From sequence record PP920552.1: a DNA stretch of 44,881 nt. One strand, written 5' to 3'. The notes beneath the pieces were generated by a model, which was not told the DNA's origin, searched no databases, and saw only the letters and a list, made by a program, of their open reading frames with translations. This document shows positions 27,613 through 37,375 of the stretch, piece after piece; the stretch's first letter is position 1; the number at the start of each line of letters is the position of its first letter. The DNA comes from Escherichia phage SM_A2. A program made the translations under genes and the position numbers.

Positions 27613-28319
27613 TTTAAATTTTCCTCATTGACTGCTATCGCGAAGCCGCGCGGGGTGAGCGACCGGATTAATTTTGTGCGGGCGGACTTGCCTCCGAGGC
27701 GACTATACTGCTTCGAGTACCCTTTTTCAACGAATACAGGCTTTTTCTCAGGCATACGAAAGCCGTTGCCGGTCCATAAGCAGGTCAGCTTCGGATATGA
27801 ATCGCGGGCGTTGATGTATTCCGGGAAGAGCGGGTGCGCGTCATCCTCCGGCAGATAGCCGCCATACTCCCACGGATCAAACGAGTGGTCTGGCTTGCGC
27901 CACTGGGTGGAAAGCACACTGCGCGGATTCTCAATCATATACGGAACCTCAAAGAAGTCCCCCAGAAAAGCGGCGATCTTCGCGGTGCGCACTGCCTTAA
28001 GCTGAAAGGCGGGGTCTTTTGCACGCTTGCGCGGGAAAGCAGGCGCGCCGCTCACTGCCAGATCCGTGCACGGTGGAAACGCATAGATGATATCTGGCGT
28101 ACCGAAATCGCCATTCATCGCACGGTCTACAAAGTCCAGATCGATAAACTCATTGCGATACCGGATTCCGCGACCATAAATCCGGTAGTCCAGATAAGAC
28201 CCATGATCGGCTTCGGAGTAGTTGAAACAGTAGCATTTGTGCCCCATTTCGGCAGCACGCTCGATCATCAAGCCGCTGCCGTCAAACAACGACCAGATAG
28301 TCATTTTTGCAATAGTCAT
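27609..28319 (-). CDS. compact C5-cytosine methyltransferase-like protein
   Basis: Motif I LFDGSG (FxGxG), motif IV FPPC (Pro-Cys), motif VI ENP (ENV-like); only 236 aa, so no obvious room for a full target-recognition domain; ATGA-coupled to the helicase stop. Confidence 0.55.
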   Translation of the reverse strand: MTIAKMTIWSLFDGSGLMIERAAEMGHKCYCFNYSEADHGSYLDYRIYGRGIRYRNEFIDLDFVDRAMNGDFGTPDIIYAFPPCTDLAVSGAPAFPRKRAKDPAFQLKAVRTAKIAAFLGDFFEVPYMIENPRSVLSTQWRKPDHSFDPWEYGGYLPEDDAHPLFPEYINARDSYPKLTCLWTGNGFRMPEKKPVFVEKGYSKQYSRLGGKSARTKLIRSLTPRGFAIAVNEENLK

Positions 28320-35991: not shown

Positions 35992-36021
35992 TCTAAAAAT
36001 AGGCCCGCAGATTAGCGGGCC
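35992..36021 (-). terminator. intrinsic terminator (minus strand)
   Basis: GGCCCGC-AGATTA-GCGGGCC hairpin followed on the minus strand by TATTTTTAG. Confidence 0.6.
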
Positions 36022-36029
36022 GGATAATA

Positions 36030-36641
36030 TTAATCTTCCAGTTCGAAATAAGTTTCGACGATTTCTTTAAGATCTTTGTGGAAGTCTTCGACGTCGTCAT
36101 CTTCCAGCTTGGCGATTGATTTGATCTCGAACGATTCCAGCAGGTCGTCGAATTCGTCGTTGGCATCGTCGTCGTCACCACCAGCGATAATAGCGGCGTA
36201 TTGTTTGATCTCATCGCGCATCTCCGCCAGCGGATCGGCATCTTTCTTGCCTTTGCCTTTCGCCGGGGCTTTTTTAGATTTAGCCGGTTTTTCGTCTTCG
36301 GCGTCATCGTCGTCATCTTCTTCTACGACTTCTTTTTTGGCCTTACCTTTCGCCGGGGCTTTTTTAGATTTAGCCGGTTTTTCGTCTTCGGCGTCATCGT
36401 CGTCATCTTCTTCTACGACTTCTTTTTTCGCCTTACCTTTCGCCGGGGCTTTTTTAGATTTAGCCGGTTTTTCGTCTTCGGCGTCATCGTCGTCATCTTC
36501 TTCTACGACTTCTTTTTTCGCCTTAGACGGCTTCTTGTCTTCCTGCTTACCAACGGCAGCGCCAACGGTTTCATAATGCTTAGCGATGGTTTCCAGTGCT
36601 ACTACGCCGCGAGTAATCAGGTTTACGATTTGTTCAAACAT
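36030..36641 (-). CDS. charged-repeat protein, first gene of leftward operon
   Basis: 203 aa; three tandem 38-aa repeats (KKEVVEEDDDDDAEDEKPAKSKKAPAKGKAKK) from 114-bp DNA repeats (about 36245-36530); strongly acidic C-terminus; GGAGAT RBS. Confidence 0.6.
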   Translation of the reverse strand: MFEQIVNLITRGVVALETIAKHYETVGAAVGKQEDKKPSKAKKEVVEEDDDDDAEDEKPAKSKKAPAKGKAKKEVVEEDDDDDAEDEKPAKSKKAPAKGKAKKEVVEEDDDDDAEDEKPAKSKKAPAKGKGKKDADPLAEMRDEIKQYAAIIAGGDDDDANDEFDDLLESFEIKSIAKLEDDDVEDFHKDLKEIVETYFELED

Positions 36642-36846
36642 GTTTTATATCTCCGATTGGTTAAGTTTAGGTGTCGGCAGTTAACTTCGTCGGTGGCCTT
36701 AACATATTGCCAGGTTGCGCGTTCTCCCGTTCGGGTAGTGGACCGGGTTATATATTCACGGTTGGGAATCCTGACACTTCGATCCGGCCCCTGCGTTGCC
36801 CCTCTCCAGTTTGCGTCCTGCATCCTGTCGACGGGGTGAATAATAG

Positions 36847-36879
36847 ATTGGTTGCAGGATGGGTGTCAACAACTAATTT
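36847..36879 (+). promoter_or_regulatory. sigma70-like promoter with ATTGGTTGCA motif (rightward)
   Basis: ATTGGTTGCAG (-35 = TTGCAG 36852-36857), 16-nt spacer, TAATTT (-10, 36874-36879). Confidence 0.4.
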
Positions 36880-36985
36880 CAAAAAAAAAGCGCCGAGGCA
36901 AAATGCGACGGCGCTAACCAATAAGAGACAATGAGACGGGAATTATTATTACACGCGTGCGCGCCCGTTTCAATATCCAAAGGAT

Positions 36986-37014
36986 TTGACACCTTGCGGT
37001 TTTAGGTGTAGTTT
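36986..37014 (+). promoter_or_regulatory. sigma70-like promoter (rightward)
   Basis: TTGACA (36986-36991), 17-nt spacer, TAGTTT (37009-37014); about 30 nt upstream of ATG 37046. Confidence 0.5.
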
Positions 37015-37045
37015 CATTGGTCATTAACCAACTGGGGACATAACA

Positions 37046-37375
37046 ATGAATGTAAACGACGCAATCGAAATGTTAACGAAGACTGTTAGCAGTGAAACAA
37101 GCCGGTCATGGGCTTATACCGATGCCGTTGGGGCGGTGCTGTTTGAGGTCGAGCGCCTGCGCAGTGTAGAAAAAGAATTACGCGCCAGGCTGGAATTGCT
37201 CAACGGTACTGCAGCAAGCAAGCTGCAAAAGCACAATGAAGAAATGGAAGAATACAAAAAACAGGTTATCCGTTTGCGCGCCGAGGGCAAATCCTGGGCG
37301 ATGATTGCCGAGTTGACCGGAATTAATCGGAGCACAGTGCGCTCCTGGGTACGCAATAATAAAACTTCTAAGTAA
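37046..37375 (+). CDS. HTH DNA-binding regulator (putative)
   Basis: 109 aa; coiled-coil N-terminal half; C-terminal HTH resembling sigma-70 region 4/LuxR type (GKSWAMIAELTGINRSTVRSWVRNN); first gene of the rightward operon. Confidence 0.55.
   Translation: MNVNDAIEMLTKTVSSETSRSWAYTDAVGAVLFEVERLRSVEKELRARLELLNGTAASKLQKHNEEMEEYKKQVIRLRAEGKSWAMIAELTGINRSTVRSWVRNNKTSK

Follow-up and report, generated by a model that had tools for sequence, protein, structure and literature searches.

A structured 161-nt RNA in the divergent promoter region of a Dhillonvirus recurs in unrelated enterobacterial siphophages

The stretch of DNA analyzed in this study (Escherichia phage SM_A2, PP920552.1; 44,881 nucleotides, hereafter the window) is a Dhillonvirus (HK578-like) genome, which 175 Dhillonvirus-type records match at 90-95% identity. 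It contains a leftward gene block at 24.4-36.6 kb and a rightward block from 37.0 kb. Their sole point of divergence in the genome is a 404-bp gap, bordered by the charged-repeat gene on the minus strand (start codon 36641) and the HTH gene on the plus strand (ATG at 37046). The leftward operon of about 12 kb carries replication and recombination genes, the rightward operon carries the HTH and helicase-primase genes, and the gap between these replication operons lies at the cumulative GC-skew minimum. The 109-aa HTH protein has a C-terminal HTH with matches to HTH_23 and Sigma70_r4_2, and a 20-nt inverted repeat is shared by the initiation regions of the two flanking genes. The initial annotation had proposed a divergent region between the two operons, which is borne out by the gene orientation and the top promoter matches; judged from its sequence, the gap is a real, compound promoter region of a virulent Dhillonvirus. 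The sequence features listed there can be read where they were placed, including the A9 tract (36881-36889), GCGCCG-N13-CGGCGC (36890-36914) and the GC-rich near-palindrome ACGCGTGCGCGC (36953-36964), although two of the listed features had been assigned to the wrong strand. The largest part of the gap, about 160 bp (36672-36832), had gone unmentioned and corresponds to a structured RNA. The features of the gap are listed in Table 1.

Table 1 Features of the gap and its flanking initiation regions (window positions; helices of the structured RNA are given in plus-strand coordinates).
Feature	Position	Strand	Signals or parts	Basis
Translation initiation region of charged-repeat gene and C/A-rich unstructured linker	36642..36671	minus	UAACCAA 36663..36657; SD GGAG 36654..36651; AUG 36641..36639	sequence read
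161-nt structured leader RNA	36832..36672	minus	six helices	covariance model, pair statistics, RNAalifold, cross-family blastn
P1	36825-36832 with 36673-36680	minus		
P2 hairpin	36812-36822	minus	loop AGGAC	
Unpaired segment	36800-36808	minus	GGAGAGGGG	
P3	36786-36791 (5' strand) with 36692-36698 (3' strand)	minus		
P4 hairpin	36756-36774	minus		
P5	36742-36747 with 36710-36715	minus		
P6 hairpin	36726-36735	minus		
P_L1, predicted leftward sigma-70 promoter	36840..36869	minus	TTGACA 36869..36864, 18 nt, TATTAT 36845..36840	
Leftward intrinsic terminator	36881..36914	minus	hairpin 36914..36890, then U9 36889..36881	
Candidate small RNA of about 57 nt	36881..36937	minus	single-stranded 5' part 36937..36915, then terminator	inferred from P_L2 and terminator
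P_L2, predicted second leftward promoter	36945..36973	minus	TTGAAA 36973..36968, 17 nt, AATAAT 36950..36945	
P_R, predicted rightward promoter of the HTH/helicase-primase operon	36986..37014	plus	TTGACA, 17 nt, TAGTTT	
HTH gene leader and initiation region	37015..37045	plus	TTGGT-N5-ACCAA inverted repeat 37017-37031; UAACCAA 37025-37031; SD GGGGA 37034-37038	sequence read, repeats

Promoters were scored on both strands of the whole window by the number of matches out of 12 to TTGACA/TATAAT with a spacing of 16-18 nt. A single site in the window scores 11/12 and two score 10/12; the gap, whose promoter signals are above chance, contains two of the three. P_L1 (11/12) is the top sigma-70 match of the entire window, and its predicted start at about 36833/36832 is the first base of P1, the closing helix of the structured RNA. 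In relatives, its hexamers are kept and its spacer of 17-18 nt drifts in sequence. P_L2 (10/12, shared rank 2) has an extended -10 (TG at 36953..36952), and its -35, spacer and -10 are all invariant (29/29 positions) across 17 distinct Dhillonvirus gaps. The ACGCGTGCGCGC palindromes sit inside the P_L2 spacer, whose invariance at 17 of 17 positions suggests an extra constraint; an invariant spacer with GC-rich palindromes would fit a candidate operator, though nothing ties it to the HTH protein, which the initial annotation put forward as a candidate autoregulator within a likely early switch.

The initial annotation had found no convincing leftward promoter and had placed a rightward one at 36847-36879. 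The latter, TTGCAG-16-TAATTT, reaches only 6/12 and overlaps the far better minus-strand site P_L1, for which reason the statement that a leftward promoter is lacking is wrong. The other proposed rightward promoter, P_R, has a perfect -35 and stands at the top of the 9/12 class in the window. It is supported by its hexamers, which are invariant in relatives around a variable spacer, and by the independent HK578 RefSeq record, in which two leftward promoters and one rightward promoter are placed at equivalent positions, by prediction only. The divergent locus L015 has TTGCAC-17-TATATT instead. We infer the transcription starts of P_L1, P_L2 and P_R from these promoter sequences. The arrangement recalls the PR/PRM-type divergent early control region of temperate phages such as lambda: P_L2 and P_R stand back to back with their -35 boxes 12 bp apart, beside a small HTH gene. 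Unlike that region, the gap belongs to virulent phages, has two tandem leftward promoters split by a terminator, and is accompanied by no identified repeated operator set and no repressor/Cro pair.

The hairpin and A9 tract read by the initial annotation as a generic control hairpin do exist, and on the minus strand they constitute a leftward intrinsic terminator ending in U9. The hairpin GCGCCG...CGGCGC has inner GC/GC pairs and a stability of -16.7 kcal/mol in the fold of the 57-nt RNA. Of its 25 columns, 23 are invariant among relatives. Locus L012 has UCCCCG...CGGGGA, in which two double compensatory changes keep the pairing, and at the divergent locus L015 an unrelated hairpin and A-run replaces it at the same position. 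'Terminator' is annotated under the matching segment in the CS16 record, and a simple terminator scanner missed 36914..36881 solely through its 8-nt loop limit.

P_L2 would thus direct synthesis of an RNA of about 57 nt ending at this terminator, and P_L1, directly past the terminator, would produce the leftward replication/recombination mRNA. The 57-nt candidate is predicted to fold into an unpaired 5' part of about 22-23 nt, the hairpin and U9, and 22 of the 23 positions of its 5' body are invariant. It is not coding because relatives carry 1-2-nt indels; a 24-codon plus-strand ORF at 36931 was also rejected, as the 1-2-nt indels of relatives are not consistently frame-restoring. Duplexes with the initiation regions of both flanking genes are predicted at -17.2 and -17.3 kcal/mol, stronger than 99.9% and 99.2% of shuffles, respectively. 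Both rank in the top 5 among 96 ORF starts, three other starts being equal or better, one of which belongs to a spurious ORF within the helicase-primase gene. No compensatory change in the pairing of the candidate with these putative targets was seen among relatives, and in Rfam neither c4 nor another sRNA family was matched, apart from weak terminator-driven hits. P1/P7 c4 RNA, P22 sar and lambda OOP are small antisense phage regulators. The candidate is similarly short, lies upstream of and on the same strand as an operon with a pairable RBS, and has a seed, terminator hairpin and U-run; it differs from them in being a predicted RNA with complementarity that extends beyond the two flanking genes.

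The covariance model R1 matches the window at 36832..36672 with 167 bits (E 9e-42). Each of 30 distinct element-bearing loci holds a single full-length match to the model, and deletion variants and chance loci hold none. In the model-fitted alignment of the 30 copies, which biases pair counts toward structure, standard pairs occupy 93.4% of helix pair cells compared with 25-50% when the partners are slid, and 16 of 35 pairs have changed on both sides in a compensatory manner. The covariation score is 0.403 versus at most 0.094 for slid partners, and none of 500 shuffles reaches 0.403. RNAalifold on a plain, unbiased MAFFT alignment independently recovers P3-P6, and P1 was found sequence by sequence, in at least seven compensating versions. 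The stability of the single-sequence fold is ordinary (z = -0.5). In the junctions and loops, about 70 nucleotides do not vary between unrelated phages. A pseudoknot of the P2 loop with GUCC/AUCC was considered and dropped because these bases already belong to P5.

It is highly improbable that the conserved 160 bp acts as DNA, providing the neighboring replication genes with operators or an origin of replication, or encodes a small protein, and such a reading is largely refuted. Its attraction lies in the position between the replication operons at the GC-skew minimum, in the adjoining primase or helicase genes of Arya, HeidiAbel and MQ-4, and in the 'hypothetical protein' annotated over the element in several public records. 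The compensatory changes, however, keep pairing rather than sequence, and G-U pairs, present in 17/30 and 18/30 copies at two P3 positions, are workable on the minus strand only. The element is always co-oriented with its flanking genes, and it is dispensable. As for a protein, no frame is open throughout (22 of 30 copies at best), lengths range over 158-161 nt with indels that are not multiples of three, and the variable columns have no 3-nt periodicity (30/32/32 by position mod 3).

By blastn, a sub-segment of the gap matches unannotated DNA of unrelated phages, always on the strand of the neighboring genes. A single copy of the element per genome is present in Dhillonvirus, Tempevirinae, Jilinvirus-like and Murrayvirus phages, and the element is 80-90% identical between unrelated phage groups whose flanks have no similarity. 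All lineages have a -10 box 7-9 nt ahead of P1, so P1 begins at about +1 to +4 of the predicted transcript throughout. Downstream of the element come a C/A-rich, G-poor linker of 20-50 nt, an SD and an ATG, and a terminator follows in none of 19 representative copies. The element heads arrays of small variable genes, and the first downstream ORFs are unrelated both across and within lineages: L027, L049 and L056 have an identical terminator-promoter-RNA unit, yet unrelated first ORFs. Matches to a two-anchor DNA pattern in L044, L046, L048 and L051, which are MAGs and marine contigs, were attributed to chance.

Natural loss of the element is also observed. The viable relatives Envy, YD-2008.s, JLBYU37 and Haito_Bas83 lack it but retain the promoter and RBS, with a small 5' hairpin precisely in its place, and the linker and initiation region of the charged-repeat gene are kept in such deletion variants. 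The replacement hairpin of L012, GUCG-AAA-CGAC, is P1 capped by a triloop. Presence and absence vary among phages of about 94% identity. These comparisons establish the existence, strand, structure, position, portability and dispensability of the 161-nt RNA. Across lineages, the element has no linked protein gene within 2.5 kb, and in a comparison of seven complete Dhillonvirus genomes (four without and three with the element) no protein gene co-varied with it, so a partner, if there is one, would be host-encoded. The tail-fiber allele is the only gene that tracks the element split, and it was set aside as a lineage effect.

The RNA is undescribed, strongly conserved and non-coding. The element had no match in the whole window searched against Rfam 15 at gathering thresholds, nothing fell within it when 36550-37100 was searched at E up to 10, and the loci of four other lineages were likewise without a match at E up to 1. 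Neither tRNA nor tmRNA genes were found in the window. A blastn comparison with 5,426 E. coli genomes and with PLSDB plasmids gave no match to the element, on which ground host mimicry and a prophage origin were rejected. Its sequence was not found in a full-text literature search, and papers on structured RNAs of phages, on put RNA and on the promoters of Dhillonvirus gave no description of it, a comparison outside which lie the 10,006 unnamed candidates of PMC10690425. In these searches, the domain is explained neither by a known RNA family nor by a host sequence or a protein partner from the phage. A paper on Dhillonvirus anti-Tmn concerns a different locus.

Every functional role discussed below for the 161-nt RNA is one that we infer. 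The one we prefer, tentatively and at somewhat below even probability, is a portable cis-acting 5' leader module. The leftward mRNA would fold into the six-helix domain from its first nucleotides, and the closing helix P1 would clamp the 5' end, serving as a 5'-terminal stem-loop that shields the transcript from 5'-end-dependent decay. The invariant core would bind a host component of the transcription, translation or RNA-decay machinery, with the result that the downstream genes, whatever they are, would have their expression raised or gated. Consistent with such a role, the element is promoter-proximal in all lineages and followed by a linker, SD and ATG, the downstream ORFs are unrelated, and a 5' hairpin is kept where the element is missing. 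5'-terminal stabilizer stem-loops are known from bacterial mRNAs, for example in the ompA 5' UTR. They share with the element a hairpin near the 5' end, P1 starting within about 1-3 nt of the predicted end, and the simple hairpin of element-less relatives is of this kind; by contrast, the tip of the element's hairpin bears a 145-nt domain with about 70 invariant nucleotides. A hairpin alone would suffice as a 5' stabilizer, which leaves these nucleotides unexplained and speaks against the cis role. Since the element is naturally dispensable, any benefit in cis would be non-essential.

Rather less probable, though a serious competitor, is a trans-acting accessory RNA, in which the cargo is the 161-nt domain itself, acting as decoy or inhibitor against a host factor or an anti-phage defense. 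Its synthesis would come first, from a strong early promoter, and cleavage within the A/U- and C/A-rich linker would free it. A patchy distribution among near-identical phages combined with transfer across unrelated families is a signature of accessory anti-defense or host-takeover functions and would favor a trans role, as would the high identity between groups whose flanks share nothing, the place at the head of small variable gene arrays and the absence from E. coli genomes and plasmids. The invariance of loops and junctions suggests that a specific partner is recognized. Sequences in the P2 loop (CAGGAUG/CAGGACG/CAAGGAU) and in P4 (CAGGAUU) resemble CsrA-type GGA hairpin sites, but by an informal estimate the number of GGA motifs is near the expectation from composition. 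Also against a free RNA, none of the 19 representative copies has a terminator or defined 3' end after the element, all of them running into an SD and ORF.

A riboswitch-like sensor appears unlikely. As such a sensor, the domain would bind a small molecule or ion indicative of host state in the manner of an aptamer and would gate downstream expression on the C-rich linker, by way of Rho loading or translation. Aptamer-like traits are the closing P1 beside the region under regulation, the nesting of three-way junctions, the high conservation of junction nucleotides and the covariation of helices, and the C/A-rich, G-poor linker that follows P1 in every lineage resembles a Rho-utilization site. 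However, the element lacks a recognizable expression platform: among the 19 representatives there is no conserved alternative pairing, terminator or SD-sequestering helix, and the linker is unstructured with the SD free. In Rfam, thresholds as permissive as E 10 yielded no known family, riboswitches included. The genes downstream are unrelated and belong to no single pathway, and hence give no clue to a ligand.

The put RNA of lambdoid temperate phages, about 70 nt long with two stem-loops, binds the beta-prime zinc-binding domain of RNA polymerase in HK022 and acts in cis. A processive antiterminator of this kind, in which the nascent domain would bind RNA polymerase and allow read-through of terminators in the 12-kb leftward operon, is a still more doubtful role for the element. 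It would suit a promoter-proximal element in all lineages of phages that use the host polymerase from sigma-70 promoters, and action independent of gene content fits the unrelated cargo. A strong terminator, GGCCCGC-N6-GCGGGCC with a T-run (36021..36002), stands right after the first leftward gene, and others occur further along the operon. The viable element-less isolates nevertheless keep an identical terminator, which argues against a requirement for the element in passing it, and coupling between the two was rejected. HK022 putL and putR are described as cis-acting antiterminator RNAs (PMC9378689). The element shares with them the position just past an early promoter, folding, dependence of the phage on host RNA polymerase, indifference to the downstream genes and no need for a phage protein. 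It differs in its occurrence in virulent siphophages and in its 161 nt and six helices, against two stem-loops, without sequence or structure similarity to put.

Beyond the portable leader as such, we put at about even chances a wider proposal, in which the element is a self-contained promoter-plus-RNA cassette, a new phage-specific RNA class that spreads horizontally among unrelated virulent enterobacterial siphophages. Such a cassette would bind a host machine or small-molecule signal and either license variable early cargo or neutralize a host factor or defense.

Current research on phage-host interaction and phage defense relies heavily on Dhillonviruses, T1-like Tempevirinae and Jilinvirus-like phages, as in the BASEL collection, and their early transcription is essentially uncharacterized. 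Whether it serves as expression module, decoy or sensor, the element would give virulent phages that depend on the host polymerase an additional, RNA-based level of early gene control or protection. The naturally occurring alleles with and without the element provide a ready experimental system, and a portable leader could find use in phage engineering. On the practical side, the 'hypothetical proteins' that several public genome records carry over the element are spurious.

The gap at 36642-37045 owes its interest chiefly to an undescribed structured leader RNA of 161 nt encoded on the minus strand, and to a lesser degree to a very highly conserved unit running from a predicted leftward promoter, P_L2, to a terminator. 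A 2-kb stretch around the gap matches 175 phage records, most at 90-95% identity and nearly all from Escherichia/Shigella Dhillonviruses (HK578, SSL-2009a, EK99P-1, and BASEL isolates). Genes run rightward over 1-24.3 kb, leftward over 24.4-36.6 kb, and once more rightward from 37.0 kb on, and the gap is therefore the single divergence point. The product of the first leftward gene, the charged-repeat protein, differs in length among relatives (203 aa in the window, approximately 171 aa in Envy, YD-2008.s, and JLBYU37, and 143 aa in HK578). It has zero Pfam matches, its PHROG family has no known function, and public records label it 'nuclease inhibitor gamma', 'prohead core protein', or hypothetical. 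Some phage records have doubtful-looking host labels (MG065648.1, MG065641.1, MG065687.1, and ON843697.1; 'Campylobacter phage A144, A14a, A136' and 'Pseudomonas phage Motto'); their sequences match coliphage Dhillonviruses or Tempevirinae, with A144 at 93.7% identity to the window across 2 kb.

Features in and around the divergent gap
Feature	Position	Strand	Description
Candidate internal promoter	27730..27702	-	TTGAAA-17-TATAGT
Terminator after first leftward gene	36021..36002	-	GGCCCGC-N6-GCGGGCC + T-run
Charged-repeat protein gene	36030..36641	-	First gene of leftward block; phrog_3127
Tandem repeats in charged-repeat gene	36255-36525		Three near-perfect 90-bp repeats (KKEVVEEDDDDDAEDEKPAKSKKAPAKGKA)
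DUF2800/PD-(D/E)XK exonuclease gene		-	Leftward block, after charged-repeat gene
Gp2.5-like single-strand-binding and annealing protein gene		-	Leftward block
Family-A DNA polymerase gene		-	Leftward block
Initiation region I1, two copies	36645-36664; 37024-37043		One at each divergent first gene
Leader RNA	36832..36672	-	Helices P1-P6
P_L1	36869..36840	-	TTGACA-18-TATTAT
Candidate small RNA	36937..36881	-	About 57 nt
Third I1-like copy	36915-36930		Non-coding, between terminator and P_L2
P_L2	36973..36945	-	TTGAAA-17-AATAAT, upstream TG
GC-rich palindromes	36951-36967		ACGCGT, GCGCGC
P_R	36986-37014	+	TTGACA-17-TAGTTT
Inverted repeat	37017-37031		TTGGT-CATTA-ACCAA, perfect 5-bp arms
109-aa protein gene		+	First gene of rightward block; C-terminal helix-turn-helix (HTH_23, Sigma70_r4_2)
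Helicase-primase gene		+	Next after the 109-aa HTH gene

The initial annotation had described a divergent control region with two candidate rightward promoters and no convincing leftward one. That region is real, if ordinary, and every feature listed is present at its given position in the sequence, but a promoter and a hairpin were read on the wrong strand. The supposed rightward promoter at 36847-36879 (TTGCAG-16-TAATTT) agrees with the consensus at 6 of 12 positions in a whole-window scan, and the consensus scan reported no plus-strand promoter there. The minus strand of the same DNA holds the leftward promoter that had been missed, P_L1, the sole 11/12 match on both strands of the 44.9 kb. 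P_L2 is one of two 10/12 matches in the window, and the other, inside the leftward block, is a candidate internal promoter. The second rightward promoter, P_R, stands, with a perfect -35 box and 9/12 overall. Whereas P_L1 and P_R have conserved hexamers and variable spacers (14 related gaps), all 29 positions of P_L2 from -35 to -10 are invariant in 17 distinct Dhillonvirus gaps, including the 17 spacer positions in which the GC-rich palindromes sit; this difference suggests that a putative protein-binding site overlaps P_L2. In RefSeq, the entry for the type phage HK578 predicts three promoters in the identical arrangement, two leftward and one rightward, and the layout is therefore ordinary and in effect already publicly predicted.

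A sensitive blastn search of the gap returned, besides Dhillonviruses, strong short matches (86-92% over 52-147 nt) in unannotated DNA of unrelated phages: Tempevirinae (swan01, tunus, PHB17, KMI8, and Motto), Jilinvirus-like phages (Arya and others), and Klebsiella phages. Reciprocal searches yielded MQ-4, sortkaff, HeidiAbel_Bas97, BUCT618, Lumpael, and IME279, and pattern scans yielded 12 metagenome contigs and one phage-size MAG contig. Every annotated match lies in a 200-270-nt gap of a gene array whose strand is that of the match's minus strand. Sequence types are discordant with phage taxonomy (PHB17 and Motto, both Tempevirinae, carry the Dhillonvirus-like type, and swan01 another). 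No match to the element was found in Rfam at permissive thresholds with five lineages, in 5,426 complete E. coli genomes and PLSDB plasmids, or in a full-text literature search for its sequence. Public 'hypothetical protein' CDSs drawn over it, such as Bas97_0052 (HeidiAbel, locus L038, 2502-2621) and those in many Dhillonvirus records, are probably spurious ORFs.

The element is a strand-specific, multi-helix RNA present in one copy per genome. In a four-lineage alignment, invariant blocks alternate with blocks of compensatory change, and RNAalifold, run on 21 copies aligned with plain MAFFT, recovered four helices, of which two show many double changes. A per-sequence search found at least seven compensating versions of the outer closing helix P1: GUCGACAG/CUGCCGAC, GUCGAC/GUCGAC, GACGGGC/GCCCGUC, GACGGGUG/CACCUGUC, GGGCG/CGCCC, GGGCGGCG/CGCCGCCC, and UGAGGCG/CGCCUUA. 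A covariance model of the full structure detected one full-length copy at each of the 30 distinct element-bearing loci (167 bits, E 9e-42 for the window copy) and had no match in five element-less Dhillonvirus loci or four chance loci. Standard pairs fill 93.4% of pair cells, versus 25-50% after sliding the 3' partners by 1-3 columns, both sides change in 16 of 35 pairs, and the covariation score is 0.403 versus at most 0.094 with slid partners, observed values that none of 500 shuffles reached; the alignment used for these statistics was model-fitted and leans toward the structure, while the RNAalifold/MAFFT and P1 searches are independent of it. The covarying helices are P1, P2, P5, and P6. 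The long-range helix P3 (GGGGCY paired with GGCYACC, plus extensions) and P4 (UCAGG-AUUCCCAA-CC.UGA) either stay invariant or show G-C/G-U changes only, and their G-U pairs identify the minus strand as the RNA strand. No reading frame stays open throughout the copies, which are 158-161 nt long, and the variable columns split 30/32/32 by codon position; together with the pair statistics, this essentially excludes coding or DNA-level readings.

Judged from predicted starts, the element occupies the very 5' terminus of a promoter-proximal transcript, directly before translated genes of any kind. In the window it starts at G36832, the first P1 base, 7 nt past the P_L1 -10 box. Other lineages have a -10-like box (CATAAT, TATAGT, or TATTAT) 7-9 nt upstream of P1, often with a good -35, and P1 is therefore predicted to begin at about +1 to +4 of its transcript in all lineages. 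In several of them an intrinsic terminator lies immediately upstream of the promoter. Conserved lineage-specific motifs precede the cassette's -10 box (loci L017, L040, L041, L042, and L050; L018, L023, L038, and L039): in Tempevirinae and Murrayvirus, an inverted repeat, TAGCAC-N5-TGYTA, 21-22 nt ahead of the box, and in Jilinvirus-like phages, TTGATAGGTANAAACGATT together with TTTAC-N3-GTAAA. Such motifs could be activator or operator sites and suggest that the cassette is under differing promoter control in different phages.

On the 3' side, P1 is followed by a C/A-rich, G-poor linker of 20-50 nt, a Shine-Dalgarno sequence, and ATG. The first ORFs are unrelated, encoding the charged-repeat protein in the window and lipoprotein-like, small membrane, or zinc-ribbon proteins elsewhere. 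Three related contigs (L027, L049, and L056) have an identical terminator (GGGGCTTCGGCCCC + T6), promoter (TTGACA-16-TATAGT), and leader RNA, each with a different first ORF, and the junction 3' of the leader looks like a gene-exchange hotspot. Across lineages the element is linked to no protein family, and the apparent 'shared ORFs' are all artefacts over the element itself. In a comparison of four complete genomes without the element and three with it, the only co-varying genes were such artefacts and a tail-fibre allele, the latter a lineage effect. A riboswitch-like sensor, perhaps operating via Rho on the C-rich linker, would suit the aptamer-like architecture; with neither of two defining riboswitch features found, an expression platform and a gene association, we consider it quite improbable.

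The element has been exchanged between unrelated virulent phages, has no phage partner, and is dispensable. A minority of Dhillonviruses of about 94% identity (Envy, YD-2008.s, JLBYU37, Haito_Bas83, and SP1; loci L001, L007, L009, and L012) lack exactly window ~36667/76-36823 and retain P_L1 and the ribosome-binding site. A small hairpin substitutes for the element, and that of L012, GUCG-AAA-CGAC, amounts to P1 with a triloop cap. The strong intrinsic terminator that directly follows the charged-repeat gene, at the head of the 12-kb leftward operon, does not differ between element-bearing and element-less relatives. Because viable element-less phages keep this terminator, a put-like antiterminator is quite improbable, slightly more so than the riboswitch-like sensor. 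In working mode the element would be closest to promoter-proximal phage leaders of the put kind or to 5' stabilizers, and it lacks defining features of the put RNAs.

We tentatively favor a portable cis-acting leader. P1 would be a 5'-terminal stem-loop shielding the mRNA against 5'-end-dependent decay. Stabilizing stems need to sit no more than a few nucleotides from the 5' end, a rule that the natural swap of the element for a bare hairpin fits; the working mode would be similar to that of known 5' stabilizers, although the element does not match them in every defining feature. The invariant core may bind a host component, so that expression of the downstream cargo would be raised or gated. 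Between P2 and P3, the exposed, invariant, Shine-Dalgarno-like GGAGAGGRG might, speculatively, be a ribosome standby site. A decoy or anti-defence RNA acting in trans would accord with the patchy, horizontally transferred distribution and with the invariance of the loops, among them CsrA-like CAGGAUG hairpin loops, but the element has no defined 3' end, and we regard this as unlikely. None of 19 representatives has a terminator after the element. While the promoters and terminator are typical of their classes, the leader RNA belongs to none of the families tested, a comparison that stops short of the unnamed candidates in a large computational catalogue of viral RNAs (PMC10690425).

Upstream of P_L1, the annotated hairpin and A9 tract are present and read on the minus strand as GCGCCG...CGGCGC followed by U9, an intrinsic terminator of leftward transcription (-16.7 kcal/mol). 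In the relative's gap L012 two double changes preserve the pairing (UCCCCG...CGGGGA), and the divergent L015 has a different, unrelated hairpin and A-run at this position. Because P_L2 lies upstream of the terminator, a small RNA of about 57 nt can reasonably be predicted. Its 23-nt single-stranded 5' part is invariant at 22 positions, a conservation above that of HTH-gene codon positions 1 and 2 (0.955) and far above that of position 3 (0.81); nearby 1-2-nt indels in relatives rule it out as coding sequence.

Both divergent first genes have a common 20-nt initiation region, I1 (UUAACCAAYNGGRGAYAUAA), and three of the four TAACCAA motifs in the window fall inside the 404-bp gap; the motif resembles the T7 gene 10 'epsilon' enhancer (UUAACUUUA). 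Since the third I1-like copy lies antisense within its body, the candidate RNA could pair with both flanking initiation regions. The predicted duplexes (-17.2 and -17.3 kcal/mol) exceed 99.9% and 99.2% of shuffles and are both in the top 5 among 96 ORF starts; three other starts are equal or better, one being a spurious ORF inside the helicase-primase gene. No compensatory change in this pairing was seen in related gaps. The perfect inverted repeat located roughly at +1 to +12 of the transcript predicted from P_R is invariant across Dhillonviruses except in L015 and may act either as an operator or, in the HTH mRNA, as a 5' hairpin.
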